Shown here in pieces: positions 31,931 to 56,850 of a DNA stretch of 64,000 bases; position 1 is the first letter of the stretch; the number at the start of each line of letters is the position of its first letter. Source of the stretch: Candidatus Kuenenia stuttgartensis (GTDB lineage: Bacteria; Planctomycetota; GCA-002687715; CAIWVZ01); NCBI GenBank assembly GCA_945860915.1, contig CAMARR010000007.1:37010-101009 (forward strand). Reading direction: 5' to 3'. A program made the translations under genes and the position numbers. The notes under the pieces were generated by a model, which had not been told where the DNA came from, did not search any database, and saw only the letters and a list, made by a program, of their open reading frames with translations.

Positions 31931-32955
31931 ACGAACTCCCGCACGCAGTTCAGCTCCTGTCGAACACGCTGCGAATCATCGACCAGACTGCGCTCCCGGA
32001 CGTTGAACGATGGTTGACACTCGGTTCGTCAACCGAAGTGATTGAGGCAATCCAACGCCTAGCTGTACGCGGAGCCCCGGCAATCGGGGTGGCGGGGGCC
32101 GGGGCTGCGTGGCTTGCCGCCATGGAATGCCGGGATTCGACGTTCGCTGAGGACTTTGAACTCAGATGTAGGACTATAGCCAACGCCCGGCCCACGGCGG
32201 TCAACTTGCGGTACGCAGTCGATCGTGTTCGCGCTTCCGTCGCAGGTGCCGCCTCGCCCAACGAAGCCCGCGCACTCGCACGCAAGACAGCAGAGGATCT
32301 CATTCGTCAAGAAGCGCTCGCTTCGGAATCCATGGGACGCATTGGCGGAGCACTGATCGAGGCGAATGAGCAACTTCTGACTTATTGCAACACGGGCTGG
32401 CTTGCGACGACAGGTGATGGCACGGCCCTCTCCGTGATCTATTCAGCGCATCGCGCGGGGAAGAACATCTCCGTCTACTCTTGCGAGTCAAGGCCACTCT
32501 TGCAGGGCGCACGCCTCACCGCATGGGAGCTGACGCGAGCAGGGATTCCGGTCACGGTCATTTGTGACAACACTGTCGGAATTGCCATGGCTATGGGACG
32601 GGTCAATCGCGTTCTCGTGGGTGCCGATAGGATCGCAGCAAACGGCGATACGGCGAACAAGATCGGGACCTACATGGTTGCCGTACTGGCCAAACGCCAC
32701 GGCGTGCCATTTCATGTTGTTGCTCCGACAACCACCTTTGACCTGACCACGCCTGATGGAACCGCAATACCCATCGAGGAACGCGACGAAAGCGAAGTCC
32801 TTTGCATGGCAGGTCGACGGGTCGCCGCGGCCGGTGCCCGAGCATTCGCCCCGGCTTTCGACGTCACACCCGCATCTCTCATCACAAGCATCGTCACCGA
32901 ACGTGGTGTGATTGAAGATATCAGCGAGCGCGGCGTTCGAGCACATTTGGCCTAG
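31927..32955 (+). CDS. mtnA: S-methyl-5-thioribose-1-phosphate isomerase (eIF-2B alpha/beta/delta family)
   Basis: VRGAPAIGVAGAGAAWLAA and the conserved C-terminal Cys/Asp region. GTG start overlaps the purC stop. Confidence 0.8.
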   Translation: MNELPHAVQLLSNTLRIIDQTALPDVERWLTLGSSTEVIEAIQRLAVRGAPAIGVAGAGAAWLAAMECRDSTFAEDFELRCRTIANARPTAVNLRYAVDRVRASVAGAASPNEARALARKTAEDLIRQEALASESMGRIGGALIEANEQLLTYCNTGWLATTGDGTALSVIYSAHRAGKNISVYSCESRPLLQGARLTAWELTRAGIPVTVICDNTVGIAMAMGRVNRVLVGADRIAANGDTANKIGTYMVAVLAKRHGVPFHVVAPTTTFDLTTPDGTAIPIEERDESEVLCMAGRRVAAAGARAFAPAFDVTPASLITSIVTERGVIEDISERGVRAHLA

Positions 32956-41541: not shown

Positions 41542-41949
41542 ATGCAAGCACATCCCATCATGGCCCTCGTTCTGGCTAGCCTTCTCTTGTCCGTGCCTGT
41601 TCATTCGCAAATGCCATCCGACATCAAAGTCGAGGGAACTCGACTCGTCGAGTTCAAGCGCTCGAAGGGTGCTTCCCTCGCAGGCAACGACATTTCGTGG
41701 AATGTTCCTGCAAGGACATTCGAACGCCCGTTATGGACTCGACGAGGATTCACTCTCTATCTGAGCGATGGGATCGGAGTTCTCGTGCCAGCAGGGCACG
41801 ACGCACTCGCCGAACTGCGTCGCCGGGGAGGGGTCGCTCTAGTCCGCGGAACGGTAAAACCTCATTCGGATGCAAAACCCGGCGAACCCGCGTACGTCGT
41901 GATCGTGCGCGATCTTAACCGCAGAAAGCTGCCGAAGCGCAAGTCCTAG
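41542..41949 (+). CDS. hypothetical secreted protein
   Basis: Signal peptide (MQAHPIMALVLASLLLSVPVHSQ). No family recognised. Confidence 0.4.
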   Translation: MQAHPIMALVLASLLLSVPVHSQMPSDIKVEGTRLVEFKRSKGASLAGNDISWNVPARTFERPLWTRRGFTLYLSDGIGVLVPAGHDALAELRRRGGVALVRGTVKPHSDAKPGEPAYVVIVRDLNRRKLPKRKS

Positions 41950-43322
41950 ACCTCCTCATATAGAGGGCCTGTGTCGACATGATGAGCACTGAGCGCCGCG
42001 GCAAGAACGTCACGGCCAACAAGCAGAGATGCTTTGTCTGGAGCCTCGAAACGCACGGTGAGGTTCGGGGTCGTATTGCTTGCGCGCACAAGAAACCAAC
42101 CTCCCGCAACACGCACGCGGGCGCCATCGATCTCCACGACTTCGTGCCTACGTTTCAGCTCCGAGCACAGCGCATCAACAATTCCAAATTTCACATCGTC
42201 TGCGCAGGGAACTTTGATTTCTGCAGTCGAAACCGACCTCGGGATGTCGTTGAAGAGGTCACTGCAATGTACGCCGGGCGAGTCCATCAGCTTGAGAACC
42301 ATCAACGCTCCATAGAGCGAATCGTCTATCGGGAGATAATCGCGGTTGAAAACGATGTGGCCGGAGAGTTCGCCCCCGAGCACGGCGTCAAGCTCCTTGA
42401 TATCACGCTTCAGAAGCGAGTGTCCAGTCTTCCCCATGACGGGTATCCCGCCGCACTTTCGCACCCAGTCTTCGAGAAAGTCGCCGCATTTCACATCGTA
42501 TCGAATGACGCCAGCGGGATACGTTTTCAGCATGGCCTTAGCAAATATCGCGACGAGCCAATCCGCGGAGATCTTCTGGCCGCGCTCATCGATGACCCCG
42601 ACACGATCTCCATCGCCATCAAATCCAAGACCAAGATCCGCCCGCGTCTCGACGACCTTCGACATGAGGTCTTTCATGTATTTCGGGACCTCGGGATCCG
42701 GCAGATGATTCGGGAAATCTCCGTCCGGATTGCAGTACAAGGGAATCGTGTCGATGCCAAGTCGGTTGAAGGCATCAAGAACCGTCGGTCCCATCACGCC
42801 ATTTCCGCAATCAACGGCTACGCGGAATTTCCTCGTGAATCGGAAGCGCGAGCAAACATCCTCGAGGTAACGATCCATGTAAGCGACCGCGTCGACACGC
42901 CCAGTACCCGCAAGGAGATCACGCCCGTGTGCCTCAAGGTTCAGACTCCGTATCGCATCTCCGTGGAGACCGCTGGTACCTAGGCAACATTTCAATCCGT
43001 TGTCGGGCTTGGGATTGTGGCTTCCAGTCACCATCACGCAACCACCCGCACGGAGCCTGTGAACCGCGTGGTACGTCACCGGTGTGGGCGCCACCCCGAT
43101 GTCGAACACTGTCAGCCCCGTTGAAGCGAGGCCTTCGGCAACGGCATGAGCAAGCATCGGCGATGTATGGCGCACATCTCGACCAACCACTGCATTCGTG
43201 GCGCCGCCACGGACAATTCGACTTCCGAGTGCCTTGCCTACGCCGCGAGCCACTTCCGCGGAAAGTGGCACCGGTGACTTGCCTCGAATGTCGTACTCTC
43301 GGAAAAGATTCGGGTCGAACAT
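41946..43322 (-). CDS. phosphomannomutase/phosphoglucomutase
   Basis: Alpha-D-phosphohexomutase active-site loop TGSHNP plus Mg-binding and sugar-binding domains. Confidence 0.9.
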   Translation of the reverse strand: MFDPNLFREYDIRGKSPVPLSAEVARGVGKALGSRIVRGGATNAVVGRDVRHTSPMLAHAVAEGLASTGLTVFDIGVAPTPVTYHAVHRLRAGGCVMVTGSHNPKPDNGLKCCLGTSGLHGDAIRSLNLEAHGRDLLAGTGRVDAVAYMDRYLEDVCSRFRFTRKFRVAVDCGNGVMGPTVLDAFNRLGIDTIPLYCNPDGDFPNHLPDPEVPKYMKDLMSKVVETRADLGLGFDGDGDRVGVIDERGQKISADWLVAIFAKAMLKTYPAGVIRYDVKCGDFLEDWVRKCGGIPVMGKTGHSLLKRDIKELDAVLGGELSGHIVFNRDYLPIDDSLYGALMVLKLMDSPGVHCSDLFNDIPRSVSTAEIKVPCADDVKFGIVDALCSELKRRHEVVEIDGARVRVAGGWFLVRASNTTPNLTVRFEAPDKASLLVGRDVLAAALSAHHVDTGPLYEEV

Positions 43323-43369: not shown

Positions 43370-44938
43370 ATGAGCATGCCGTTTTCTATCGCCTTCGTGA
43401 TTCTCTTTGCCGGGGTCCCCCTCGTCGCCCAAGACAGTCGCCCTGCTTCACATCCATCGACCGTGAGAGAGGTCGCGATCCTGCACACGAACGACATCCA
43501 TGGAACAATCAGGGCAATGCCTGATCCCCGCTCGCGCGAGGGTACCCCCAAGTTGGTGGGCGGCATTCAAGAACTCTGCGCGGCAATCGATGACGAACGG
43601 TTCAAGTCCCCGAACAACCTGCTCCTCGACGCCGGCGATTGGTACCAGGGCACGCCCGAAGGGACCCTGTCAAAAGGGCTTTGCTCCGTCGAGCTCATGA
43701 ATGCCATCGGATTCGATGCGGCTGTCTTGGGAAATCACGATTTCGACAATGGGGCATCCAATGTCGACACCCTCCTAGGGGTAGCCAGGTTCCCCGTGTT
43801 TGGGGTCAACATCATGGTCCCACCCGGTGCAAGTAAGCCTCCGTACCTCGAGCGCATCACACCAGGGAAGTTATTCATTACAAACGGAGTGAAGATCTTC
43901 GTAGACGGCATTCTGACGGAAGAAGCGCCACGACTCCTGAATCCTGGCGCAATGGGTGGAGCGCTTGTGGAGGCGGAAATCACCGGCGCGCAGCGTGCGG
44001 TTTCCCGCGCGCGGCAGGCGGGTGCCGAGGCACTTGTGCTTGTCAACCACGTTGGAAAAGACCGGCACTTGGTGATTGGTCGTGACGTTCAAGGCATCGA
44101 CGTCCTCATTGGCGGACACAACCACCGAGACGTTATGGATGAGCCCGTGATCATCCCCTCCACTGGGACCTTGATTGCTCAAGCTGCACCCAACGCCGGC
44201 GCGCTCGGAGTCGTTACCTTCGGCTTCGACACGGTCACCCGCAAAGTCGCCTGGAAAAAGAGCCGCCTTCGCCGAGTCGTTGGCGACCCGAGTCTGTCCA
44301 TTCCACGGCTTAAGCCCATCATCGACCTACACGAGAAGGCGGTCGCCGAGAACATGGATCGTCGGGTAGCCGAAGCCCCCGTAGCCATTCTCCGCAGTTC
44401 CGACCTCCGGCGGCCAACGCCTCTCGGCAACCTGCTTACAGAACAAATGCTGGCTGTTTCTGAAGCAGATATCGCTGTTCACAACATCAACGGGATTCGT
44501 GCAGATCTTCCAGCCGGGACGATCCGAGTCCGAGATCTTTTCATGGTCTCCCCATTCGGAAACACGGTCGTCACCGTGAAACTCCCTGGAAAGCACATTC
44601 GAGCACTCGTGGAACGTCACCTCGCCAATCCATCGCGGGGATTTGTTTTCCGGGGCATCACTACGGTATGGCGAGAGTCCGATGGACGCCGCGAGATCGT
44701 CTCGATCATGCACGATGGCAAGGACCTCGACGACGAGCGTCAGTATTCAGTCGTAACAACTGACTATTTGGCGAACGCAGCTGACGGCGCCTCGCCATTT
44801 TCTGCGGCCAGAGAGCGACGTGACCTCGGTATGACGCTGTTGGATGTTTCGATACGCAAGTGTCAGGAGGCTGGACGGCTGAACATTGACCTCGATGCGC
44901 AATGGGTGGAAGCGCCGAAGAAGCCCACTCAGCCGTGA
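43370..44938 (+). CDS. secreted bifunctional metallophosphatase/5'-nucleotidase (UshA-like)
   Basis: Signal peptide, calcineurin-like motifs (ILHTNDIHG, GNHDFDNG), 5'-nucleotidase C-terminal domain. Confidence 0.85.
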   Translation: MSMPFSIAFVILFAGVPLVAQDSRPASHPSTVREVAILHTNDIHGTIRAMPDPRSREGTPKLVGGIQELCAAIDDERFKSPNNLLLDAGDWYQGTPEGTLSKGLCSVELMNAIGFDAAVLGNHDFDNGASNVDTLLGVARFPVFGVNIMVPPGASKPPYLERITPGKLFITNGVKIFVDGILTEEAPRLLNPGAMGGALVEAEITGAQRAVSRARQAGAEALVLVNHVGKDRHLVIGRDVQGIDVLIGGHNHRDVMDEPVIIPSTGTLIAQAAPNAGALGVVTFGFDTVTRKVAWKKSRLRRVVGDPSLSIPRLKPIIDLHEKAVAENMDRRVAEAPVAILRSSDLRRPTPLGNLLTEQMLAVSEADIAVHNINGIRADLPAGTIRVRDLFMVSPFGNTVVTVKLPGKHIRALVERHLANPSRGFVFRGITTVWRESDGRREIVSIMHDGKDLDDERQYSVVTTDYLANAADGASPFSAARERRDLGMTLLDVSIRKCQEAGRLNIDLDAQWVEAPKKPTQP

Positions 44939-46221
44939 TGGAGCGACTCCACTCGTTCCTCGGCACCCTAGCCATCCTAGGGATCGCTTGGGCACTATGT
45001 CCGAAATCACGTCGGCGTCACGTCAACTATCGAACGCTGTTGTTCGGCCTCGGCCTGCTTTGGGTTTGCGCGTTGCTCGTGCTTATGACGCCGATCAAGA
45101 GCGTGTTCCAGTCGGCTCAACATGGCGTTGATACGCTCATGAGTTTCTGTGATGCAGGAACGGAGTTCGTCTTCGGCAAGGAACTGGTCAACCCCAATGG
45201 AAAACTGGGATTCGTATTCTTAGTGCGAGCACTGCCGCCGATCCTCTTTTTTTCCGCGATCATGTCGGTGCTCTACTACCTCCGTGTTCTGCCCATGATC
45301 GTTCGGTTCCTTGGCCGCACTCTCTCGTCAGTACTTGGCACAAGCGGCGCAGAGTCATTCTCCACGGCTGCGGACATTTTCGTTGGTCAAACGGAGGCTC
45401 CGCTCACCATCCGCCCCTACCTAGCGAAGGCGACACGATCCGAGATTCATGCGTGCATGACCGCAGGATTCGCAACAACGGCGGGCGCAGTGCTTGTTAC
45501 CTACGCGACGATGCTGAAGTCTCTTGTCCCTGGCATCGCAGGGCATCTGATCGTATGCAGCGTACTCTGTGCTCCGGCCTCACTGATCATTGCAAAACTG
45601 ATGTACCCTGAAGATTCAACGCCTGAAACCGCTGGCAAGACGGATCTCGAGTTGCCTCGAACGTCCGTCAACCTCGTCGATGCCATCACATCAGGGACAA
45701 CTGACGGGCTTCGTCTAGCCGTCAACGTTGCGGCCATGTTGATCGTTTTCATCGCGATGACTGCGCTCCTTGATGCGGGACTCATGGGCCTGTCAAAGTG
45801 GTTGGCGTCGCTAGTTGGAGACGGGGGTGGCTTGATACCTCCCGAAGGATGGTCGCTCGCAGGACTCCTTGGGATCATTTTCCGCCCACTCGTCTGGTTG
45901 CTTGGCATCGCCCCCGGCGACGTGCCCCTCGCCGCAAGTCTCATCGGGAAAAAGACTGTTCTCAACGAGTGGATCGCATACCGCGATATGGCCACCACTC
46001 TCGCCGACAATCCGAGCGCCCTATCCGAGCGAGGCCGACTCATCATGTCCTACGCCCTATGCGGCTTCGCCAACTTTGCCAGCATCGGAATTCAGATCGG
46101 TGGTTACTCTGCTCTCGAGCCTTCGCGGAGAAGTGACTTCGCGTCCCTTGCCGTTCGAGCCATGTTCGGTGGACTCCTAACCACTTGTTTGGTTGCCGCC
46201 GTCGTCGGCGTTCTGACGTGA
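44938..46221 (+). CDS. nupC: NupC/NupG family concentrative nucleoside transporter
   Basis: CNT-family polytopic membrane protein, 427 aa. ATG overlaps the ushA-like stop. Confidence 0.85.
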   Translation: MERLHSFLGTLAILGIAWALCPKSRRRHVNYRTLLFGLGLLWVCALLVLMTPIKSVFQSAQHGVDTLMSFCDAGTEFVFGKELVNPNGKLGFVFLVRALPPILFFSAIMSVLYYLRVLPMIVRFLGRTLSSVLGTSGAESFSTAADIFVGQTEAPLTIRPYLAKATRSEIHACMTAGFATTAGAVLVTYATMLKSLVPGIAGHLIVCSVLCAPASLIIAKLMYPEDSTPETAGKTDLELPRTSVNLVDAITSGTTDGLRLAVNVAAMLIVFIAMTALLDAGLMGLSKWLASLVGDGGGLIPPEGWSLAGLLGIIFRPLVWLLGIAPGDVPLAASLIGKKTVLNEWIAYRDMATTLADNPSALSERGRLIMSYALCGFANFASIGIQIGGYSALEPSRRSDFASLAVRAMFGGLLTTCLVAAVVGVLT

Positions 46222-47222
46222 GCTCCTTCGATTCCCATCCGAAGGTGGAGCTTCACCTTCACCTAGATGGCGCCCTTCGGACGGCAACACTCTTCGACAT
46301 GGCAACCACCTTCGGCCTGTCCATGCCTCATGGCGGGATTGAGGCCTTTGACTCATTGGTTCGCGCAAGTCCCGACTGCACCTCACTTGAGCAGTTTCTG
46401 AAGCCATTTGACGTGATCGCGCCCATCCTCTCGCACCCGGACACGCTGATTCGGGCCACGAGGGAGGTCATCGAAGACTTGCATGCGCAACACGTTATCC
46501 ATGCTGAGCTTCGATTTGCGGCTAGCCTCATGACGGGACCAAAGCGCCCTCTCGAAGCCGTCGTCGAGGAAGCTCTGACCGGCCTTCATCAAGGAACTTC
46601 GCAAACCGGGATGTCCGCCGGCATCATCCTGTGCGTGTTTCGAATTGGAAGTGTAGACGAGGCACTCCACACCGCGCGGGTCGCTGCGCGTTATCGAGAT
46701 CGTGGCGTTGTCGGAATCGACCTTGCCGGCCCCGAGGCGGCCCCTGCACGACCCTACTATGAAGCATTCCGTCTCGCACGAGATGCGGGGCTTGGCATCA
46801 CGTTGCATGCTGGAGAAGCATGTGGCCCCGAGAACATCCGTGAGGCTATTGACCTGTTCGGTGCCACTCGAATCGGTCACGGGCTAACGCTCGAGCGAGA
46901 CTTAAGACTCATGCGCCAAGTCATAGATCAAGACATCGCCATCGAGTCCTGTCCCACCAGCAATATTCACACCGGCCAAATTCGATCACTCGCCGAGCAT
47001 CCATTTCGTCGCTATTTAGATGCAGGCGTTGCAATCACGCTTTCCACCGACGACCCGTCGCTCTCTCGCATCACACTCAACGGTGAATGGGAGAATTGCA
47101 GGCGCGCGTTTGGACTTGACGCAATGGACTTCGATAGAATCAATGAGAATGCGATTCGTCATGCCTTCATCCCTGCATCCGAGAAAGCGCGCTTCGCCAA
47201 GCGCCTTGAAAGACGCCCATGA
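46218..47222 (+). CDS. add: adenosine deaminase
   Basis: Metal-binding HxH (VELHLHLDG) and SLSTDDP motif. GTG start overlaps the nupC stop. Confidence 0.85.
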   Translation: MSSFDSHPKVELHLHLDGALRTATLFDMATTFGLSMPHGGIEAFDSLVRASPDCTSLEQFLKPFDVIAPILSHPDTLIRATREVIEDLHAQHVIHAELRFAASLMTGPKRPLEAVVEEALTGLHQGTSQTGMSAGIILCVFRIGSVDEALHTARVAARYRDRGVVGIDLAGPEAAPARPYYEAFRLARDAGLGITLHAGEACGPENIREAIDLFGATRIGHGLTLERDLRLMRQVIDQDIAIESCPTSNIHTGQIRSLAEHPFRRYLDAGVAITLSTDDPSLSRITLNGEWENCRRAFGLDAMDFDRINENAIRHAFIPASEKARFAKRLERRP

Positions 47223-47605
47223 CTCCTGATGAACTTGTCCAGCTCGCAGCCAAGGCTCGAAAGTTGGCGTACGCGCCATACTCCCACTACAAAGTGGGTG
47301 CCGCCATCCTGGCAAACGATGGACGTGTTTTCACCGGCTGCAATGTTGAAAACGCTTCATTTGGCCTCACCTGCTGTGCAGAACGAACGGCCGTGTTCTC
47401 CGCAGTTGCTGCAGGAGCGAAGAAATTCGCAGCGATTGCCATTGTGACTTCCAACGGTGGATCACCGTGCGGAGCGTGTCGACAAGTGCTCCGCGAATTC
47501 GGAACGTCTACGCTCGTCATCATGTCCCGACCAAAAGGACGACCAACCGCAGCCTTGCTCGGGGACCTGCTTCCGGGATCTTTCGGACCGGAGCAACTGC
47601 GATGA
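47219..47605 (+). CDS. cdd: cytidine deaminase
   Basis: Zinc motif CAERTA ... PCGACRQ. 128 aa. Confidence 0.9.
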   Translation: MTPDELVQLAAKARKLAYAPYSHYKVGAAILANDGRVFTGCNVENASFGLTCCAERTAVFSAVAAGAKKFAAIAIVTSNGGSPCGACRQVLREFGTSTLVIMSRPKGRPTAALLGDLLPGSFGPEQLR

Positions 47606-49179
47606 AGGCCGCACTGTTTATCGTGCTGATGCTCATCGGAGCCGTCTCGCAGGCTCAGGAGACGCTTCCGGCGCGACCCGAAATCCCCGAATTCCCCACA
47701 GAATCCGTGTGGATCAACACCCCCCGCCCCTTGACGCTCCACGGCGACCTCAAGGGCCACGTCGTACTCCTCGACTTCTGGACCTACTGCTGCATCAACT
47801 GTCTCCACATTCTTCCCGATCTCGAGGACCTAGAGACTCGCTTCCGCGACGTTCCATTCGTCGTCGTCGGAGTTCATAGCGCGAAGTTCGACAACGAGAA
47901 TGTGCCGGAGAACGTCCGGGCAGCAGTCCGTCGTCACCACATCTCACATCCGGTCGTCGTCGATACGAAGCAAGACTTGTGGCAACGACTGGGAGTTCGC
48001 GCATGGCCGACTCTCATTCTCATTGACACCGAGGGGCGTGGATTCCGCGCCTGGTCCGGCGAAGGCAACAAGGAGTCCATCGCGGAGGCGATCACAAAGC
48101 TGGTTGCGGAAGGCCGAGCCCGCGGAACACTTGCCGACAAGGCGTGGAAATCCGAGTCTCTGCCTCCACTTGAAACTGCGACTGGCTTGTCCTTCCCCGG
48201 AAAAGTGATCGGATCACCCACCAGCGATAGGATTTTTGTTGCGGATTCAAGCGCCAACCGAATCATTGAGGCAACCTGGCCCAATAAGGAAGGAAGGTCA
48301 AAACTGGTGCGCATCTTCGGGACGGGTTCCCCGGGCTACGCCGACGGGGATCAGCTGCGCGCCCAGTTCCGCTTTCCACAAGGGCTTGCGCAAGTAGGCA
48401 ATGATCTATGGGTCGCGGACACGGACAACCACGCAGTCCGACATATTGATCTCGCGTCGGGAGTTGTCTCCACGCTTGTAGGCAATGGAACGATGGGCAA
48501 CGATCGTTCCGGCGGAAAGCGAGGCCGAGAACAATCGTTAAATTCCCCATGGGATCTCGCTGCGTCACCTGGGTCCTTGGCCGTCGCGATGGCAGGGACG
48601 CACCAACTCTGGAAGGTCGATACGACGAATGCGCTCGCCCGCAGGTTCTCCGGCTCAGGCCGCGAGAACATCAAAGATGGGGCGCCCGATGTAGCGAATT
48701 TTGCGCAACCATCTGGTCTCGCGTGGCTCGGGGTTGATTTATTGGTCGCCGACAGCGAAACCAGTTCCATTCGTCGAGTTTCACCGGATGGTCGTGCAAG
48801 CACTTTAGTTGGAGAAGGCCTGTTCGAATTTGGAGATACCGACGGACCCTTAGGCAGCGCACGACTTCAACATGCACTCGGTGTTGCTGTTCTCGGCAAG
48901 TCGATCATCATCGCGGATACGTACAACTCTAAACTCAAACTCATCGATACCGGCTTAACTCGCGTTGACACGTTGCCTCTCACATTCGCCAGCGAGCCCA
49001 AGTCGTTAGCGGAGCCAGGCGGAGTCTCTTCAGCCGGAGATAGGTGGCTTGTCGCAGACACAAACCACCACCGCATTCTCCAAGTCTTCGAAGATGGGAG
49101 AGCTATCGAGGTTCAAATTGCTGGGATTCGCAAGCAGGACTCGCGCCCCGCTCCGGCGCCTGAATCCCGCCCTCGTTAA
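47602..49179 (+). CDS. secreted thioredoxin-like (TlpA/redoxin) domain fused to NHL-repeat beta-propeller
   Basis: Signal peptide, a CINC redox motif in a thioredoxin fold, then at least 5 NHL repeats (VADTDNHAVRHID, VADSETSSIRRV, IADTYNSKLKLID, VADTNHHRILQV). ATG overlaps the cdd stop. Confidence 0.8.
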   Translation: MKAALFIVLMLIGAVSQAQETLPARPEIPEFPTESVWINTPRPLTLHGDLKGHVVLLDFWTYCCINCLHILPDLEDLETRFRDVPFVVVGVHSAKFDNENVPENVRAAVRRHHISHPVVVDTKQDLWQRLGVRAWPTLILIDTEGRGFRAWSGEGNKESIAEAITKLVAEGRARGTLADKAWKSESLPPLETATGLSFPGKVIGSPTSDRIFVADSSANRIIEATWPNKEGRSKLVRIFGTGSPGYADGDQLRAQFRFPQGLAQVGNDLWVADTDNHAVRHIDLASGVVSTLVGNGTMGNDRSGGKRGREQSLNSPWDLAASPGSLAVAMAGTHQLWKVDTTNALARRFSGSGRENIKDGAPDVANFAQPSGLAWLGVDLLVADSETSSIRRVSPDGRASTLVGEGLFEFGDTDGPLGSARLQHALGVAVLGKSIIIADTYNSKLKLIDTGLTRVDTLPLTFASEPKSLAEPGGVSSAGDRWLVADTNHHRILQVFEDGRAIEVQIAGIRKQDSRPAPAPESRPR

Positions 49180-50642
49180 AGGACAATCGTCGCGCGAACA
49201 ACGGCGCTGCGTCCAAGGTAACCGGCGTAGCCGATGCTCGGATTAAACGCGATCGAGACAATGTCGAAAGTGAAGGTGCCAAAAGATCCAGCACTCGGAA
49301 TCGTCACGCTAAAGTCACCTGATCCGTCCACCATGACGTGAAAGGGTGCCACTCCCACAGGCAAGGTGAAGGGGAAGAACAGGTCTCCTGACCCAGCACC
49401 CGCCCCGAGCCCAAAGAAGGGACCTGTCCCCAATGGCTGCGTCGTGACGAACGACAGCGCATTGACCACTTCGCTAAATGGCGGCGCGTCCGTCACGGCA
49501 ACCGTAATCGGATTTCCTGCCGCACCAATTTGGGACACGGAAACCTGATGAATTCCGGGAACCTGAATGATGGTTGCAAGGTGCGCTTGGAGGCCGGAAT
49601 TCAAAATGGAAGTTCCCGAGTTTGCACCTCCCGAAGCCGTGCATCCGGCATTGGTATGGATCCCGAAGACCAACTGCGAAGCCTCGTTGACGACGCAAGA
49701 ACCGGAATTTCCGCCAGTGGTATCGACGGTGTATTCCAAGCGTGTTCCAGAGACTAAGGATAAACCACCCGTGTGTGTCGTTGGAGCCTGATTCTGAACG
49801 CCCGCGCCGGTTCCAAATCCTGAGATTCTGGTGGTCGAACCGATGAGCGGGATCGATGTTGCGCGATTGTAGAATCCCTGAACCGAGGGCGCTGAAAGTC
49901 CCGACGTGGTGTTTGAGAATAGTCGAAATGCTGCCCAGTCATTGCCGATTCCACCATTGGTGTACGCGAGTGACGCGGAATCCGCGGGGTACTGATTAAT
50001 GGGCGAAGGGTGCACGACTGCGCCCGATACGGTCGACGGCGGACAGTTGAATTCGACTGTGTACTGATTCCCACCGATGCAGTGACCGGCTGTCATGAAA
50101 ACACCGTTTGCGCTGATCAATCCCCCGGAACAAATCGCGCTTCCTCCGCTATTGAGAAGCCTTCCGATTCTGGTTTCGGCCGTAGGAACGCGATCGTCTG
50201 TTGCGCCGCATATCGAGTCAATGCCAACCACCGACGGGAACCCGGCGTCGACACCGCTGATCGTCACGAACCCGGTTGAAAATGGTGGAAGTTGGAGGCT
50301 AACTCGGACAGAATCACCGTTGAAGTAGCAAGACGTCCCCTCCCACTTCTCATAAGCATCCACATCCAAGTCCTGATGAAAACCATCTAATATGCCCTCA
50401 ACGCGCACGAATGATCCGTTGGGTAAGTCAGCCCCACCAAACCACACCTTCATCCAAGCAGACCCTGGCATGGTGAGAGTAATCGGGGGCGTCGACATGG
50501 AGAGGCTCGATGCATTCACCACCTGTCCGGTTGTCACGAATTGCGGTACATGGGCGCCGTAGGCAGGCCCTACCTGTCCGAATGCAAACGCAGATCCGAA
50601 GATCGCAAGGACAATTCCGAAGGTCGCGTGCTGTAGTTTCAT
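49176..50642 (-). CDS. secreted trypsin-like serine protease with large C-terminal beta-rich domain
   Basis: Signal peptide; His context TAGHC and Ser context GGNSGS; Gly/Thr/Ser-rich C-terminal half. Confidence 0.6.
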   Translation of the reverse strand: MKLQHATFGIVLAIFGSAFAFGQVGPAYGAHVPQFVTTGQVVNASSLSMSTPPITLTMPGSAWMKVWFGGADLPNGSFVRVEGILDGFHQDLDVDAYEKWEGTSCYFNGDSVRVSLQLPPFSTGFVTISGVDAGFPSVVGIDSICGATDDRVPTAETRIGRLLNSGGSAICSGGLISANGVFMTAGHCIGGNQYTVEFNCPPSTVSGAVVHPSPINQYPADSASLAYTNGGIGNDWAAFRLFSNTTSGLSAPSVQGFYNRATSIPLIGSTTRISGFGTGAGVQNQAPTTHTGGLSLVSGTRLEYTVDTTGGNSGSCVVNEASQLVFGIHTNAGCTASGGANSGTSILNSGLQAHLATIIQVPGIHQVSVSQIGAAGNPITVAVTDAPPFSEVVNALSFVTTQPLGTGPFFGLGAGAGSGDLFFPFTLPVGVAPFHVMVDGSGDFSVTIPSAGSFGTFTFDIVSIAFNPSIGYAGYLGRSAVVRATIVL

Positions 50643-50704
50643 GATGCCCTCTATTCTAACCCTCTCTGATCGTAGTATGCGGAACTCTGTACGCTGCAAA
50701 GAAC

Positions 50705-52351
50705 ATGACCCAGCCCGTCTCTAGGTTGCTCATAACGTTCGCGCTCCTTGTTGCACAAATTGGCGCTCAGATTGCGTTCCCGTATCCACCCCCAAGTCCC
50801 GGCAACACAACACCATGCGACATCCTCATCGCCGGGGGCACATTTGGCGGCGTTGCTGCGGCAGTCGGCGCATCGGGTCTCGACACCTGGGTCATCGAAG
50901 ACTCGGATTGGATTGGCGGACAGGTAACCTCGCAGGGCGTCTCCCCTCTCGACGAACACCGCTTTATCGAGACGTTCGGGGGCACATTCGCCTACGACAC
51001 GTTTCGAAAGCGTATTCGAGACCATTACGGCGAAAAGAACCCGGGGCGAGGATGGGTCAGCCGCCTTTGTTTCGAGCCTCGAATCGGCCTGAAGGTCCTT
51101 GAGCAACTCGCTCGGGAGTCACGTACCAAGGTCCTGCTCAACGCTCGGGTGACTGCAATCACCCGTCAGGCCGAGAAAATCACGTCTGCGACCGTGACCC
51201 TCAAAGACGGCAGCACGCGCGTGTTTAAACCGAAATTCATTCTCGATGCAACCGACCTCGGTGATATCTACCCACTCGCTGGCATTCCCTTCCGCATCGG
51301 CAGCGATGCAAAGGCCGACACCGGAGAGCCACACGCAGACACCGTTGCTAATCCGCGCCGAACTCAGAGCTTCACTTACTGTTTCGCGGTCGACTTCGTC
51401 AAGGGCAACAAGGAACTGATCAACAAACCACGCGACTACGAACGCAACCGTGACAATCAGCCCTATTCTTTGAGCATCGGCGGAGCTGAGCGGCCTCAGG
51501 TTTATCGAGTGTTCGAACACGCGAAGGGCACCGGAGGACCATTCTGGACCTATCGCACGCTGACTCCTGACATTGCGATGATCAACTGGCCCGGCAACGA
51601 CTATCGAGGAACGGAGGTTCTTCTTGCCAACCACGACGACGCAAAAAACCTCGCCTTGGGATTCTTGTACTGGCTTCAGAACGAATGCCCCCGCGATGAC
51701 GGTGGCCGTGGCTATCCTGAGATGCGGCTCCGAAAAGATGTCATGGGTACCGAGGATGGGCTCTCCATGCGCCCATACTACCGTGAAGGTCGTCGACTCA
51801 AGGCAATGACGACCATTGTCGAGCAAGACATCGTCGCAGGGGCGCATTCTAGTTCAGGGAGTTCTGCCCGAGCGGCCCTATTCGCCGATTCCGTTGGAGT
51901 CGGGTACTACCCCATTGATATTCACGTATGCCATGGGGACACCAAGGAAGAACACAGCTCTGGACTGCCCACAAAGCCGTTTCAAATTCCGCTTGGGTCC
52001 TTGATACCTATCGGTGTCACGAACGTACTTGCTGCAGGAAAATCGCTCGGTGTTACGCACGTTACAAACGGCTCATATCGCCTACACCCCGTTGAATGGA
52101 ACACAGGAGAATCAGCAGGCCGCACTGCTCGATTTTGCATCGATAAGCAGAAATCACCAATCGAAGTACGCGCGAACCCCGCCCTCATGCAAGAACTTCA
52201 ACGAAGCCTGCTCACGGATGGCGTACCAATCTTCTGGTATGTCGACTTGAAGCGCGATTCGGCGGACTGGATCGAGGCTCAGATGACAGCCGTCAAATCA
52301 GGAACTGCAGTTGATCCGACATCACTTGGACTCAAGGCGAAGGTGCAATGA
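50705..52351 (+). CDS. secreted FAD-dependent oxidoreductase (FAD_oxidored-like)
   Basis: Signal peptide followed by a dinucleotide-binding motif (ILIAGGTFGGVAAA). Confidence 0.65.
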   Translation: MTQPVSRLLITFALLVAQIGAQIAFPYPPPSPGNTTPCDILIAGGTFGGVAAAVGASGLDTWVIEDSDWIGGQVTSQGVSPLDEHRFIETFGGTFAYDTFRKRIRDHYGEKNPGRGWVSRLCFEPRIGLKVLEQLARESRTKVLLNARVTAITRQAEKITSATVTLKDGSTRVFKPKFILDATDLGDIYPLAGIPFRIGSDAKADTGEPHADTVANPRRTQSFTYCFAVDFVKGNKELINKPRDYERNRDNQPYSLSIGGAERPQVYRVFEHAKGTGGPFWTYRTLTPDIAMINWPGNDYRGTEVLLANHDDAKNLALGFLYWLQNECPRDDGGRGYPEMRLRKDVMGTEDGLSMRPYYREGRRLKAMTTIVEQDIVAGAHSSSGSSARAALFADSVGVGYYPIDIHVCHGDTKEEHSSGLPTKPFQIPLGSLIPIGVTNVLAAGKSLGVTHVTNGSYRLHPVEWNTGESAGRTARFCIDKQKSPIEVRANPALMQELQRSLLTDGVPIFWYVDLKRDSADWIEAQMTAVKSGTAVDPTSLGLKAKVQ

Positions 52352-53171
52352 CCCATCGGGGCGCCTTACCACGTTCCTTGTCCATTCTGGCGAGGAACTG
52401 CAACGCCCCAAGTCCGACATCAATTGCGTGAGATTCAGCCTTGGCGCGTTGTCCGGCTTCGAGAAAGACGTCCGTCGCCCGATTCGCGAAAACCGCGCAA
52501 ACAGCGCCTGCGCGGCACCCGAGGAGATGCGCTAACACGAGAAGGGACGATGCCTCCATCTCAAGATTGAGGACCCCCTGATCGGCTAATTGTTTTGGCA
52601 GTTCCGAGAACCGCCCCTTGAGCACTTCATGGTCACGCCCCTGCCAGCCGTAGAAACCTGGTGCGGTCGCAGTAAGACCTACGTGGTGCCGGTGGCCGCA
52701 AGACGCGGCTGCAGACGACAACGCGAGGACAACCTCATGGTTCGCGACAGCCGGAAACCCTGGCTCGACGAAGGCTGCTGTCGTGTTCTCAAGGCGAACT
52801 GCTCCCGTTGTGATCACGAGATCGCCTGGCTTCATGTCCGCGCGCAACGCGCCGCATGTCCCGACCCTGATGATGTCCGGCGTTTCAACGCATCGGAGAA
52901 GTTCAACAACCGCGATTTCTGTGTTGTCGGGGCCCATTCCCGTCGCCATGACTGTGACGTCAAGCCCCTTCCAAATGCCCGTGAAGGTCACAAACTCACG
53001 GTGGGTTTTGGGGAACCCAGGGCGAATGGAATCGAAGCGCTTGGCAATCGCGGCCGCGCGGGCCGGGTCGCCAACAAGCAGAATCCGACGAGCCACATCT
53101 TTGGGCTTCAGGCCGATGTGATATTGCTCACCGGCAGGACCCTTCGGTCGATTGGCACGTTGCTGGCTCAT
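52332..53171 (-). CDS. nucleoside phosphorylase (PNP/UDP family; DeoD/Udp-like)
   Basis: PNP_UDP_1 fold ([26 protein letters not shown] ... [15 protein letters not shown]). Overlaps the deoC stop by 4 nt. Confidence 0.8.
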
Positions 53172-53938
53172 CCTTCTCCCCTAACGATCTTCACTCCGGC
53201 ACTCGCGCCGACGCGCGTTGCGCCGGCGGCGACCATGCGCTCGAGCGTCGCGCGATCCTTGACGCCTCCGGAAGCCTTCACGCCGAGAGAAGGACCCACT
53301 TCGGAGCGCATGAGAGCGATATCAGCAACGGTCGCACCGCCGGTTGAAAACCCGGTGGAAGTCTTGACGAAATCAGCGCCGGCCTTGACAGAGAGTCGAC
53401 ACGCACGGCGTTTCTCATCATCAGTCAGAAGGCACGTTTCCAAAATCACTTTGACTGTGATTCCCGCACGGCGCGCTGCGGTAACGGCCTCGATATCCCT
53501 AAGGACATCGTCATCCCGATTGGACTTGAGTAGGCCGATGGCGATGACCATGTCAATCTCGGTCGCCCCAAGTTCAATAGCCAATCGTGTCTCAGTGGCC
53601 TTCACGGCCGCCAATGTCGCGCCCAACGGGAATCCAACGACGGTGCACGTTTTAACGCCTGTGCCCGTGAGGCGGCGGGCGCATCGCTCAACCCAGATGG
53701 GATTAACACACACCGACGCAAATCGATGTTCCGCAGCCTCATCGCAAAGCCGGTCAATCTCATACTGCATAGCGTCGGGCTTGAGAATCGTGTGATCGAT
53801 CAGCGCCGCTACACTTGGAATTGCGTTCTTGGGCGATGGAGTAGTTCCGATGCGATCAGCACCCGCAACCACAAGCGCGTCGGTGACCGCATCAACCAAG
53901 CGCTCAAATGCGGCCGGATCCATGGCTCGACGGGTCAT
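53168..53938 (-). CDS. deoC: deoxyribose-phosphate aldolase
   Basis: Class I DERA. Schiff-base Lys context (FVKTSTGF) and catalytic Lys (VGVKASGG). Collinear with Thermotoga-type DERA, with about 12 extra N-terminal residues. Confidence 0.9.
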
Positions 53939-54216
53939 GTTGGTCGGCTCTCCATGTCGAGCCCGTCAACCACGGCAACGATGACTGCTTGGACAGGTGT
54001 CGACTCACTCCCGATCATCATGCGCGCGCTGCCGCCTTCCTTCAGGATGACGACGAGATCTCCTTCGCCCGAGTCCACATGATCCACGGCCACTAACGCG
54101 CGTCCCGTGGGTGTGCCATCAGGATTTACAGGCTGGGCCAAGAGCAAACGCGCCCCCGCCAATTCACCATCGGCGATGGTGGCGTATACGGCACTCTGAA
54201 TGCGCGCAAGAATCAC
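53935..54216 (-). CDS. bacterial microcompartment vertex protein, EutN/CcmL/PduN family (BMC-P), copy 3
   Basis: [30 protein letters not shown] ... [17 protein letters not shown] ... SARMMIG ... AVIVAVVD matches the Pfam PF03319 pattern. GTG start overlaps the previous stop (GTGA). Confidence 0.78.
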
Positions 54217-54503
54217 CGAACGTCTCCGGGTAGAGGAAGTCGGTCTAGGATCGCAATGACTGACGCATCCGTCGCCACGAGATCCGTGGCATAGAGCCGC
54301 TTCCATGGAATCGCAGCCTCGCTTGCTGTCACATAAAGGACAATTTGCCCGGGACCTGCTCCAACTGTGTCAGTGGCGGCGATGACAGCACCATGCGGCG
54401 CTCCGGCTGCATTGAGAGGCTGCAGCATCAACATGCGACCGCGTTCAAGCGCTGCTTGCTTGGCCGTTGCCCAAACGGAACCAACGACACGAGCAATTTC
54501 CAT
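54213..54503 (-). CDS. bacterial microcompartment vertex protein, EutN/CcmL/PduN family (BMC-P), copy 2
   Basis: MEIARVVGSVWATAKQAALERGRMLMLQPLN ... ATDTVGAGPGQIVLYVTASEAA ... ASVIAILD is the canonical BMC-P pattern. 96 aa. Confidence 0.85.
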   Translation of the reverse strand: MEIARVVGSVWATAKQAALERGRMLMLQPLNAAGAPHGAVIAATDTVGAGPGQIVLYVTASEAAIPWKRLYATDLVATDASVIAILDRLPLPGDVR

Positions 54504-55207
54504 CAGGAACCTTCGATGAGCGCCACACGTCGGGTGTGGCGTCCCCCTTCAAAGGCCGTGTCGAGGAATGCGTCGACGATAGCCACCATCTCTTGCTCTT
54601 TCACGATTCTCGAACCAAGGCACAGGACGTTCGCGTCATTGTGGCTTCGAGCGGAGATGGCCTCGGCTACGACGGCGCAAGGCGCCGCGCGGACACCAGC
54701 ATGCCGGTTGCATGCCATCGCCGAAGCGACACCGGACCCATCAATGACAACAGCGCGTGCAACTCTTCCGGAAACTACCGCAAAGGCCGCTTGGTGGGCA
54801 AAGTCCGGCCAATCGACGGCTTCCGTCGAATGTGTTCCAAGATCGATGACCGTAATTCCTTTTGAAACAAGCAGAGGCTTCAGCGCCTCCTTGGCAGCGA
54901 ATCCTCCGTGATCTGATGCCACGGCAAGCAGATTCTTCACGGGCAATGGCCCGGCCTTCATGGCGACGCCGAGACGGTCAGCCGTCTCCCGCGCCAGCGG
55001 CGTCACCAATGAACCATCCGGCACTATTACAGGACTTCGAGCGGTGTACGCCGCCAAGACATCGGCCTCTGTTACGAGTAGACGTTGACGCCTATCTGCG
55101 GCGTCATCGAAACGCCTCCATCCGGCCACGCTCGCGGGCATCGAGGTCGGAGCGAACTTCTCGACAAGCGCGTCGCGGACGGCACGGCGGATCGCTTCAC
55201 GATCCAT
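54503..55207 (-). CDS. ribose-5-phosphate isomerase B (RpiB/LacA/LacB family) with about 85-aa N-terminal extension
   Basis: The C-terminal 149 aa align along the whole of E. coli RpiB (SDHGGF ... VIDGSGVASAMACN ... SHNDANVL ... FEGGRH). The N-terminal 85 aa have no RpiB counterpart and begin with an amphipathic helix. Confidence 0.8.
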   Translation of the reverse strand: MDREAIRRAVRDALVEKFAPTSMPASVAGWRRFDDAADRRQRLLVTEADVLAAYTARSPVIVPDGSLVTPLARETADRLGVAMKAGPLPVKNLLAVASDHGGFAAKEALKPLLVSKGITVIDLGTHSTEAVDWPDFAHQAAFAVVSGRVARAVVIDGSGVASAMACNRHAGVRAAPCAVVAEAISARSHNDANVLCLGSRIVKEQEMVAIVDAFLDTAFEGGRHTRRVALIEGS

Positions 55208-55529
55208 CCGGCTGTACTCCTAGATCAGTAACGCCCATCCTGTCAAACACTGCCCAATCACGGTCGACGATTTCTAGATCATCGACGATCGCAACGATCA
55301 CGGCATCAACCGCCTTATCCTTGGTGGCCTCCGTCTGACGTGCGCTCGACCCCTGAGTGACGAGCACAGTTTCACCCATCCCCGCGCCAATGACGTCGAC
55401 GGCGATCACGAACCCATCCCCCAGCGTTCGATCGGGCTTCAGCGCGCGTACAATCATCCACTTGAACCCCGAGACACGGGGATCTTTGCGGGTGGCCCAC
55501 ACGGTTCCTACAACTCTTCCAAGCAGCAT
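55197..55529 (-). CDS. bacterial microcompartment vertex protein, EutN/CcmL/PduN family (BMC-P), copy 1
   Basis: MLLGRVVGTVWATRKDPRVSGFKWMIVRAL ... VDVIGAGMGETVLVTQGSSARQ ... AVIVAIVDDLE. Start taken at the internal Met. Confidence 0.8.
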   Translation of the reverse strand: MLLGRVVGTVWATRKDPRVSGFKWMIVRALKPDRTLGDGFVIAVDVIGAGMGETVLVTQGSSARQTEATKDKAVDAVIVAIVDDLEIVDRDWAVFDRMGVTDLGVQPDGS

Positions 55530-55594
55530 GTTGTTTGACGGCTTGCGCCGGCCTTCCAAAGATAGAGGATAGTGCACGGTCCGCAAGCGTCCCC

Positions 55595-56287
55595 ATGAAG
55601 TCATTCCCCCGCGATCTTCTCGGTTCCTCTCGGCTCATCCTCCTCGCGATGGCCGTCTTCGCGTGGCTTTGCAAGGGGGTGCCCAACTTCATGCAAGGCG
55701 CCCCAGAAATCGTCGTGGATATGGCTGATTACTGCGGTGAGTTTGCGCCTCGGCTCCTAGCTGGGTCAGCAACCGTAGCCGGCGTCATTCACTTGCGCGG
55801 CGTTGAGCGATGGCAGTCACTGATCATCCCTTTGACGTTGCTCTTGGCCCTATTCGGGCTGCATCTTCGCGCCATTAACGCTCCAAACGATGTGGGCCAG
55901 CTCGAAGACCTTGCGACCACGGTCCTTACTCTGGCTTTCCCTTTCGCTGTTCTGATTCCTCTCGCCCGACGGGGCCCCGGATGGATAGGTTCCTTCGTCG
56001 TTTCTGCCCTTTGCTTTGGCATCGGACTGGCAATGGCATTCACTCGGCCGAACCGAGCAGCGTCGTACCTGAGTTCCGGCCTGGGCCTTCCCCCAACCGG
56101 AATCTACGCGCCACTGGCGGTCGCGATTTTGGCCGCGTTACTCCCGCTGGCACTCTCTCGAAGGTACGGACTCACGGTCGCAATTGCGACGTTTGCGTCG
56201 GCGCTACTGCCCCCTCTATGGGGCGACGGAGTTCGGCTTGCAATCTGCGTTATAGGAATGGCGCTCAGCTCAGCGCCGACGATCTAG
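55595..56287 (+). CDS. hypothetical polytopic membrane protein
   Basis: About 6 hydrophobic helices. It is the only long ORF in an otherwise gene-free 0.7-kb segment between the BMC-P operon and the BFN gene. Start taken at MKSFPRD. Could be an antisense artefact. Confidence 0.4.
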   Translation: MKSFPRDLLGSSRLILLAMAVFAWLCKGVPNFMQGAPEIVVDMADYCGEFAPRLLAGSATVAGVIHLRGVERWQSLIIPLTLLLALFGLHLRAINAPNDVGQLEDLATTVLTLAFPFAVLIPLARRGPGWIGSFVVSALCFGIGLAMAFTRPNRAASYLSSGLGLPPTGIYAPLAVAILAALLPLALSRRYGLTVAIATFASALLPPLWGDGVRLAICVIGMALSSAPTI

Positions 56288-56850
56288 GATTTCTCGTCGT
56301 CTGACGACTCATCAGAGAATTCGTCGTCGTCGAGCTCATCATCATCATCTTCGTCGTCGCTTTCCGCTCCGTCATCTTCCTCGTCCGCCTCGTCTCCATC
56401 CTTACTGTCAAGCATCGCCAGTTGCTCAGTGAAATCCTCCACGGTCTCAAGAACGCTCGTTGTGACCATAAGAGGAACTCCCCACTTCAACGCGAAAACC
56501 ATAGCGTCAGAAGCACGGGTATCGAGTCTTACCTCATTGCGATGCGAGTCAAGCTGTTGGCTCAGAATCAACGACGCACAATAGACTCCATTGTGAACAC
56601 TTGAGATCACAGCCCGCGTTACTCCGATGTCGAAACCGCGCAGAGCAAATTCCATAAGATCATGGGTCATCGGTCGATCTGCTCTGACTTTTCTGAGCTC
56701 ACGATCGATTGCCGCCCCTTCTACCTGACCGACGAAGATGACGAAGAGTTTGGTCGGATGCTTGATTGCAACGCCCACGGTCCCGCTTTCGCGAAAAACC
56801 AGAACGCGGTCGATCGATACCTCGACTGGTACGTTGGGATCAGTTGCCAT
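56284..56850 (-). CDS. bifunctional nuclease (BFN/DUF151) domain protein with poly-acidic C-terminal tail
   Basis: BFN-domain pattern (RPMTHDLMEFAL ... RASDAMVFAL) followed by about 45 residues of almost only Asp/Glu/Ser. Confidence 0.65.
   Translation of the reverse strand: MATDPNVPVEVSIDRVLVFRESGTVGVAIKHPTKLFVIFVGQVEGAAIDRELRKVRADRPMTHDLMEFALRGFDIGVTRAVISSVHNGVYCASLILSQQLDSHRNEVRLDTRASDAMVFALKWGVPLMVTTSVLETVEDFTEQLAMLDSKDGDEADEEDDGAESDDEDDDDELDDDEFSDESSDDEKS

Follow-up and report, generated by a model that had tools for sequence, protein, structure and literature searches.

A conserved Planctomycetota gene block that probably links nucleoside uptake to an SPU-type microcompartment module

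Introduction

SPU-type (sugar-phosphate-utilizing) compartments are among the most widespread bacterial microcompartments (BMCs), with roughly 280 loci catalogued; their substrate in vivo has never been shown, and the view that they handle the sugar of DNA rests on the presence of deoxyribose-5-phosphate aldolase (DERA, also DeoC). SPU enzymes have been placed in DNA catabolism (Axen 2014, PMC4207490), SPU BMCs have been proposed to metabolize DNA degradation products (Sutter 2021, PMC8217296), and deoxyribose-5-phosphate is the predicted entry metabolite in Dwyer, Sutter & Kerfeld 2024 (PMC11585597). Here we analyse a 64,000-nucleotide stretch of DNA from Candidatus Kuenenia stuttgartensis (contig CAMARR010000007.1; the whole stretch is called the window), in which an operon for BMC vertex proteins (BMC-P), an RpiB homologue (RPI), DERA and a nucleoside phosphorylase lies near an operon for the uptake and deamination of nucleosides.

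The curated SPU definition (Dwyer 2024, Sutter 2021) places an aldehyde dehydrogenase (AldDH, PF00171) in the locus, combines BMC-H (PF00936) with BMC-P, plus BMC-T, in the main locus, and includes a DERA extension of about 70 residues, an amphipathic helix with two strands. Dwyer 2024 (PMC11585597) also describes SPU RPIs that have an N-terminal encapsulation helix and linker, lack the catalytic Cys and bind DERA. By definition, a satellite locus lies apart from the main locus and encodes shell proteins, accompanied by enzymes or not, and FRAG BMCs have BMC-P triplets at dispersed sites, Planctomycetes included (Sutter 2021, PMC8217296). A 2025 preprint on SPU-type compartments of Asgard archaea (Hodarchaeales) proposes that 5'-nucleotidase, uridine phosphorylase and phosphodeoxyribomutase supply deoxyribose-5-phosphate to the compartment, where DERA acts next (PMC12747264). 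The DNA-sugar hypothesis for SPU is thus already published. Neither 'nucleoside' nor 'nucleotidase' occurs in the main text of Sutter 2021 or in that of Dwyer 2024, and the latter also has neither 'phosphorylase' nor 'phosphopentomutase'.

Results

Genes were identified from an open reading frame (ORF) listing, translation, and Pfam and NCBIfam profile scans of the window, in which G+C content is about 59% throughout. All of the genes named in an original prediction, made from the letters of this DNA, were recovered in their places by both profile collections. The microcompartment genes form a single operon on the minus strand:

55529-55197, minus strand: BMC-P vertex protein 1, first gene of the operon (PF03319, 95 bits)
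55207-54503, minus strand: SPU-type RpiB homologue, RPI (PF02502)
54503-54213, minus strand: BMC-P vertex protein 2 (PF03319)
54216-53935, minus strand: BMC-P (EutN/CcmL) vertex protein 3 (PF03319)
53938-53168, minus strand: DERA/DeoC (TIGR00126, 274 bits; cut-off 117)
53171-52332, minus strand: uridine-phosphorylase-type nucleoside phosphorylase (UP), last gene of the operon (PNP_UDP_1)

Every junction overlaps, by 1–11 nt; BMC-P3 shares GTGA with BMC-P2 and ATGA with DERA, and the UP/DERA junction is a further ATGA overlap. Complete SPU loci of Elusimicrobiota have the order H-P1-AldDH-H/T-RPI-P2-P3-DERA-H, with which the P1-RPI-P2-P3-DERA series of the window is collinear. Each of the three vertex proteins has a different BMC-P of these complete loci as its best match, in unchanged order: BMC-P1 is closest to the BMC-P that follows BMC-H, BMC-P2 is collinear with the one after RPI in Elusimicrobiota, and BMC-P3 is closest to the third. 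Judged by its genes, the operon appears to be an SPU cargo and vertex module to which a nucleoside phosphorylase has been added and in which hexamers, trimers and AldDH are missing.

The second gene had been called RpiB. Its product does have the RpiB fold, and a structural model matches RpiB structures in Foldseek, but it is an SPU-type variant in which an Asp is aligned with the catalytic Cys66 of Escherichia coli RpiB and which carries an N-terminal encapsulation helix. This Asp, D156, is invariant in 55 of 55 clade members, as are T69, P70 and A72, and the phosphate-binding and ring-opening residues D9, H10, H99, R133, H134 and R137 are retained. The AlphaFold2 (AF2) model, built from the 55-sequence alignment (mean pLDDT 87.7), has a helix at residues 3–18 (pLDDT 82–89), disorder at 22–40, a further module at 44–85 and the RpiB fold at 93–233. 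The N-terminal helix is amphipathic and a disordered linker follows it; in the model this is most likely a typical encapsulation helix.

The module at residues 44–85 (window positions 55075-54953) is a confidently modelled small alpha/beta unit with an invariant Thr-Pro-x-Ala motif (TPLARE). It has no Pfam match, and a Pfam search with E up to 1 found none in the N-terminal 92 residues of RPI. The literature treats this part of the protein, which separates the encapsulation helix from the RpiB fold, as an unstructured linker.

The catalytic residues of DERA (D102, K167 and K201 in E. coli numbering) do not vary in the alignment. Its N-terminal extension, of 42 residues, corresponds by homology to the first helix in that of SPU DERAs. 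A single-sequence AF2 model of DERA had a pLDDT of 47, too low for use, and candidates and controls could not be told apart by hydrophobic moment in a test for encapsulation helices, which was dropped.

We also observed four cysteines in the N-terminal extensions of SPU-type DERAs from other loci (handles beginning with L denote loci of the comparison set): L060 (9136-9996), L061 (9141-10001), L070, L071, L073, L009, L010 and L022. The motif in Planctomycetota is CxDCTGxCAxRC (CX2CX3CX3C), and spacings differ in Acidobacteriota and Elusimicrobiota. The pattern suggests a metal or Fe-S site, and no mention of it was found in the available part of Dwyer 2024. A deletion of about 30 residues has taken out the motif in the lineage of the window and L001.

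The last gene of the operon had been described as a PNP-family phosphorylase. The PNP_UDP_1 domain is there, but the enzyme appears to be of uridine phosphorylase rather than purine nucleoside phosphorylase (PNP) type. Its best NCBIfam model is the uridine phosphorylase TIGR01718 (201 bits, below the cut-off of 280), and uridine phosphorylases take the first 12 places, and 18 of the first 19, among its PDB matches. The Gln and Arg of FYGWQGR and the Arg of ANR align with the uracil-binding Gln, Arg and Arg of uridine phosphorylases, which we take to be Gln166, Arg168 and Arg223 in E. coli numbering, and distant homologues adjoin cytidine deaminase or thymidine kinase genes. Because of these matches, residues and neighbours we read the enzyme as a probable pyrimidine-nucleoside phosphorylase, the natural partner of a cytidine deaminase.

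Such a deaminase is encoded in the second operon, on the plus strand:

43370..44938, plus strand: UshA-like 5'-nucleotidase, predicted secreted, first gene of the operon (Metallophos and 5_nucleotid_C)
44938..46221 (start 44935/44938), plus strand: concentrative nucleoside transporter NupC/CNT (Nucleos_tra2_N, Gate, Nucleos_tra2_C)
46218..47222, plus strand: adenosine deaminase, ADA (TIGR01430, 288 bits; cut-off 217)
47219..47605, plus strand: cytidine deaminase, CDA, homotetrameric type (NF004064 and TIGR01354, both above cut-offs)
47602..49179, plus strand: thioredoxin-like/NHL-repeat protein, predicted secreted (Thioredoxin_8, Redoxin and NHL domains)

Direct inspection of the sequence bore out the reported 4-nt coupling of these genes, the junctions being GTGATG (5'-nucleotidase/NupC), GTGA (NupC/ADA) and ATGA (ADA/CDA). 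The N terminus of the 5'-nucleotidase, read from the translation, is signal-like (MSMPFSIAFVILFAGVPLVAQ); both the UshA and the multifunctional-nucleotidase models of NCBIfam match this protein below their cut-offs, and TIGR00804 matches the transporter with 367 bits. The NHL protein, the true start of which is 47602 with a signal-like beginning (MKAALFIVLMLIGAVSQAQE), is coupled to CDA by ATGA, which makes this an operon of five genes.

The association between these operons extends well beyond the window. The block comprises a PGM/PMM-family mutase, 5'-nucleotidase-NupC-ADA or PunA-CDA, a protease and UP-DERA-BMC-P-BMC-P-RPI-BMC-P, and was present in at least five Planctomycetota lineages, with RPI identity down to 42%. 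L001 is fully syntenic with the window (RPI identity 73%). The P1-RPI-P2-P3-DERA-UP operon is kept in L001, L060, L061/62, L071, L073 and L098, and the BMC-P paralogues are all intact, tightly coupled and retained down to 39–42% RPI identity. Three JGI contigs with RPI identity down to 42% (L070, L071 and L073) carry PGM, 5'-nucleotidase-NupC-PunA-(Na/Ca exchanger)-CDA, the protease, UP-DERA and BMC-P/RPI genes; the full P3-P2-RPI-P1 series is present in L071 and L073, and L070 reaches the contig end after one BMC-P. The nucleoside operon is convergent to the BMC-P operon in the window, L001, L070, L071 and L073, and the protease stands between the two clusters in every version that holds both (the window, L001, L060/L069, L070, L071 and L073).

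Other versions are looser. In GCA_044222185.1 the arrangement is BFN-hypothetical-P1-RPI-P2-P3-DERA-UP, and the 2.26-Mb contig that carries it also holds PGM (minus strand) and 5'-nucleotidase-NupC-PunA-CDA at a distance of about 14 kb. In two ENA contigs (L061/62) CDA is inside the BMC-P operon, directly after UP, with no uptake cluster nearby, and L098 holds P1-RPI-P2-P3-DERA-UP alone. In the ADA slot, relatives have a trimeric PunA-type PNP (L069 11278-12102, L070 11245-12105, L071 4172-5038, L073 16793-17677), whereas the window and L001 have ADA; one gene has here been replaced by another in a single operon slot. The strongest signals of linkage are the phosphorylase, which is always co-operonic, and CDA, which occurs both within and beside the BMC-P operon.

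Linkage of this kind recurs in other phyla. Fourteen SPU loci of Elusimicrobiota open with genes for a class-B acid phosphatase and a UshA-like 5'-nucleotidase, which share their strand with TIM-PTAC-shell-AldDH-RPI-DERA (for example, L022 2894-5283). The acidobacterial L010 has the order amidohydrolase-DeoB-(PRTase)-RPI-DERA and the metagenomic L099 has DeoB-5'-nucleotidase-RPI-DERA, and there are gene pairs of 5'-nucleotidase and RPI in L081, L109 and L146, of RPI and ADA in L086, L101 and L139, and of PunA and RPI in L132. As a control we took loci retrieved by RPI similarity alone and sorted them by whether Asp or Cys occupies the site of Cys66. Nucleoside or nucleotide genes accompanied 26 of 74 Asp-type RPI loci versus 1 of 63 canonical Cys-type RpiB loci (Fisher 1.7e-7), and 7 of 12 versus 1 of 41 when counted per 65%-identity cluster (3.7e-5). 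Given this enrichment the nucleoside-gene association is recurrent and specific to SPU-type RPI/DERA, and, with the conservation of the block in Planctomycetota, the linkage of the nucleoside cluster to the BMC-P/DERA operon is more than chance. The linkage put forward in the original prediction is thus real: it is kept across diverged Planctomycetota and has independent counterparts in other lineages, Elusimicrobiota and Acidobacteriota among them. A Gemmatimonadales RPI homologue (L072) occurs without DERA or BMC context, and L074 ends at a contig end.

In four of these contigs (L099 6158-8403, L081 277-2324, L109 1-1945 and L146 12-2038) the 5'-nucleotidase homologue that immediately precedes RPI is split into two overlapping ORFs, which hold its N-terminal and C-terminal parts. 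The contigs are independent and from one lineage; the split could represent two genes or a conserved frameshift.

The two operons of the window are flanked and separated by the following genes:

41946..43322, minus strand: PGM/PMM-family phosphosugar mutase, AlgC-like (all four PGM_PMM domains in Pfam)
49176..50699, minus strand: trypsin-like serine protease, predicted secreted (Trypsin and Trypsin_2 domains)
50705..52351, plus strand: FAD-dependent oxidoreductase, predicted secreted (PF12831)
55535..56287, plus strand: polytopic membrane protein, poorly conserved (no Pfam match)
56284..56850, minus strand: bifunctional-nuclease-domain (BFN) protein with a long acidic C-terminal tail (PF02577)

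The mutase gene is divergent from the 5'-nucleotidase gene, 47 bp away. Since the protease and the FAD oxidoreductase intervene, the two clusters are convergent transcription units and not one operon; neighbouring ends overlap, by 4 nt for the NHL protein and protease genes and by 20 nt for those of the oxidoreductase and phosphorylase. Homologues of the protease lie at 12493-13965 in L070, 6759-8198 in L071 and 13172-14623 in L073, where the gene is co-directional with the BMC-P operon and directly follows UP. The oxidoreductase was found in L001 and L060 and in none of L070, L071 and L073, and is a lineage-specific insertion. The NHL protein, although fifth in the nucleoside operon, has no obvious role in nucleoside metabolism.

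The membrane protein gene is divergent from the first BMC-P gene and has positional homologues in L060, L061, L071 and L073 at 20–24% identity; Pfam gave no match with E up to 1. The BFN gene shares the strand of the BMC-P operon, lies immediately upstream of it and is kept in L060 and L061 but is not beside the operon in L073; it is possibly related to the theme of the block, or merely syntenic. Housekeeping genes fill the remainder of the window: the hut and thiamine genes, those for NusA/IF2 and cytochrome c assembly, and those for SAICAR synthase and an IF-2B-family protein. This last protein (31810-32955, plus strand; MtnA/ribose-1,5-bisphosphate isomerase family) is encoded 10 kb away, beside SAICAR synthase; it was considered as another route for pentose-1-phosphate, on whose metabolism it could bear, although it probably belongs to methionine salvage.

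Discussion

We consider it probable that this region is one copy of a block, conserved in a clade of uncultured Planctomycetota, that couples the import and processing of products of nucleic-acid breakdown with a dispersed SPU-type microcompartment. The secreted 5'-nucleotidase would strip phosphate from external nucleotides and the CNT/NupC carrier would bring the nucleosides in. CDA would then convert (deoxy)cytidine to (deoxy)uridine, and ADA (deoxy)adenosine to (deoxy)inosine. The co-operonic uridine-phosphorylase-type enzyme would yield uracil and (deoxy)ribose-1-phosphate, from which a phosphopentomutase, none being identified in the window, would make deoxyribose-5-phosphate for cleavage by DERA to give glyceraldehyde-3-phosphate plus acetaldehyde. 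DERA and RPI would be packaged in a shell, with the hexamers and an acetaldehyde dehydrogenase encoded elsewhere in the genome in satellite or FRAG-like fashion, and the two convergent operons would be co-regulated. DERA and RPI are most likely shell cargo, with the hexamer and AldDH genes at a distance, because RPI has a predicted and DERA a putative N-terminal helix and their genes interleave with three BMC-P genes in the order of complete SPU loci.

Several points weigh against this reading, and the route is not complete in the sense of the original prediction: the window lacks a purine nucleoside phosphorylase, a phosphopentomutase, an acetaldehyde dehydrogenase and shell hexamers. No BMC-H-like ORF is present anywhere in the 64 kb. 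In phmmer searches of six-frame ORFs of the window, E. coli DeoA, DeoB and DeoD, acidobacterial DeoB and a PunA-type PNP had no match, in keeping with the reported absence of deoB and deoA; SPU AldDH (query from L022), PTAC and TIM likewise had no match in its six-frame translation. Nor did nine Planctomycetota-type loci contain BMC-H, BMC-T, AldDH or PTAC within about 10 kb of the operon (less at contig ends). As hexamer, trimer, AldDH and PTAC genes are missing near the operon, the microcompartment itself is a prediction for this clade. The DERA extension is about 30 residues shorter than in relatives and its CX2CX3CX3C motif is gone. ADA yields inosine or deoxyinosine in a window that has no PNP to take up the product. 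Uridine phosphorylases usually favour ribonucleosides, so that a DNA-specific role is a hypothesis. Gene order adds to these points: the clusters here are convergent units with three unrelated genes between them, they lie about 14 kb apart in L060/L069, L061 and L098 have no uptake cluster nearby, and much of the surroundings is syntenic within the clade, which may make part of the adjacency inherited order.

The step from ribose-1-phosphate to ribose-5-phosphate, earlier described as an isomerization, is a phosphomutase reaction. An aldose–ketose isomerase of the RpiB type needs a 2-OH, which 2-deoxyribose-5-phosphate does not have. RPI cannot perform the 1-phosphate to 5-phosphate step, because a mutase reaction is needed and because the deoxy sugar lacks this hydroxyl. 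The PGM/PMM protein beside the nucleoside operon was considered for this role. Phosphopentomutases with a phosphohexomutase fold do exist, in the archaeal and human PGM2 types, and the protein has the same position in L069, L070, L071 and L073. Its best PDB match is Pseudomonas aeruginosa PMM/PGM (350 bits), versus 140 bits for 9ix8, a 'phosphopentomutase' of the phosphohexomutase fold, and its best NCBIfam matches, PgmG and Arch_GlmM, are both below cut-offs. We downgraded it: hexose-phosphate mutases are much nearer to it, a further point against the proposed route, and synteny alone might account for its conserved position; it stays a weak candidate for the (deoxy)ribose-1-phosphate to 5-phosphate mutase.

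The clusters might be neighbours through inherited gene order alone, with 5'-nucleotidase, NupC, ADA and CDA serving ordinary nucleoside or base salvage, or phosphate scavenging, without a dedicated tie to BMC-P and DERA. The convergent layout with its intervening genes, the 14-kb separation in L060/L069 and the BMC-P operons of L061 and L098 that stand without an uptake cluster all fit this explanation. So does the wider setting: ResB, Cyt_c_asm, GTP cyclohydrolase, HhH-GPD and PGM are syntenic on one flank and BFN, YkuD, NifS, BFD and CBS on the other, and since both flanks are syntenic in most genomes of the clade, part of the adjacency may be inherited order. We nevertheless regard this explanation as unlikely. 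Every version shows translational coupling between the phosphorylase and DERA, with CDA a member of the operon in L061/62, the block is kept in L073 despite a different outer flank on the BMC-P side, and unrelated phyla have independently placed 5'-nucleotidase, deoB, ADA or PunA beside Asp-type RPI/DERA, which canonical RpiB loci do not. A different question is which sugar the linked pathway serves. Ribonucleosides, from RNA or the nucleotide pool, could be the main substrate, with UP producing ribose-1-phosphate, a mutase ribose-5-phosphate and the RpiB homologue feeding the pentose-phosphate pathway while DERA mops up the deoxy fraction. Ribo and deoxy substrates alike are taken by ADA, CDA, NupC and UshA, uridine phosphorylases are the nearest matches of the phosphorylase, and RPI retains D9, H10, H99, R133, H134 and R137. 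Set against this are DERA, the universally conserved partner, which is deoxy-specific; acetaldehyde production, as no other step would account for shell proteins; and the report in Dwyer 2024 (PMC11585597) of little or no ribose-5-phosphate isomerase activity in an SPU RPI with the same Cys-to-Asp change. We consider a mainly ribonucleoside diet quite unlikely.

It is also conceivable that no compartment is made, that the hexamers have been lost, and that the BMC-P proteins are relics or have another role beside a cytosolic, deo-like catabolic operon of UP and DERA, with or without the RpiB homologue. The absence of BMC-H, BMC-T and AldDH from the 64 kb and from nine related loci would be explained, as would the loss of about 30 residues from the SPU-type N-terminal extension of DERA. 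Against it, the three BMC-P paralogues persist intact and tightly coupled down to 39–42% RPI identity, RPI keeps a confident N-terminal helix followed by a linker, as is usual in encapsulation peptides, and FRAG BMCs of dispersed type, their BMC-P triplets at sites of their own, are documented in Planctomycetes (PMC8217296). We hold this explanation to be distinctly improbable. Still more speculative, and in our view very improbable, is that the clade has no hexamers and that the BMC-Ps, RPI with its TPLARE module and DERA form a hexamer-free assembly that channels deoxyribose-5-phosphate and acetaldehyde downstream of the co-operonic UP; if true, the assembly would represent a new type of enzyme scaffold, derived from BMCs, instead of a closed compartment.

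In this conserved block, vertex genes, DERA and RPI that are co-operonic with UP, beside an operon for nucleotidase, transporter and deaminases, provide direct guilt-by-association evidence for a DNA-sugar substrate, to which the links with 5'-nucleotidase, deoB, ADA and PunA in other phyla add support. The original prediction took the layout as support for the processing of nucleic-acid sugar in SPU compartments; the linkage does fit the use of deoxyribose-5-phosphate, but the hypothesis is not new. The finding strengthens a standing hypothesis on a common uncharacterized organelle and makes it testable, and it overturns nothing. The block points to deoxycytidine, deoxyuridine and the corresponding nucleotides as concrete test substrates. 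It also shows that an SPU cargo module need not have hexamer or AldDH genes close by, which bears on the detection and classification of BMC loci.

With described SPU loci the window shares the DERA catalytic residues with a putative, shortened form of the N-terminal extension, an RPI that has the helix and lacks the catalytic Cys, the BMC-P triplet and the order P1-RPI-P2-P3-DERA. It differs from them in that BMC-H, BMC-T, AldDH, PTAC, PduS and TPI are absent from the 64 kb, that the operon includes a uridine-phosphorylase-type enzyme (in some relatives also CDA), and that the DERA extension has 42 residues and no four-Cys segment; AldDH and BMC-H/BMC-T, which the curated definition places in the locus, are not found there. 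As in FRAG or satellite BMCs, the latter being shell genes away from a main locus, the BMC-P triplet has no hexamer genes near it, and FRAG has been reported in Planctomycetes (PMC8217296). FRAG shell genes, however, are mostly remote from known enzymes, whereas this triplet is interleaved with SPU signature enzymes and a nucleoside phosphorylase. The logic of import, deamination, phosphorolysis and DeoC cleavage to acetaldehyde and glyceraldehyde-3-phosphate is that of the E. coli deo/nupC/cdd/add/udp genes, but the window has no homologues of DeoA, DeoB or DeoD, its phosphorylase is Udp-like, and the genes are organized around vertex proteins. The proposed supply route is shared with the Asgard SPU-type compartments (PMC12747264); there the supply enzymes were taken from genome-wide presence, whereas here they are physically linked and partly co-operonic. 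This linkage, together with a hexamer-less and AldDH-less SPU module that includes a nucleoside phosphorylase, appears to be the new detail that the block contributes.

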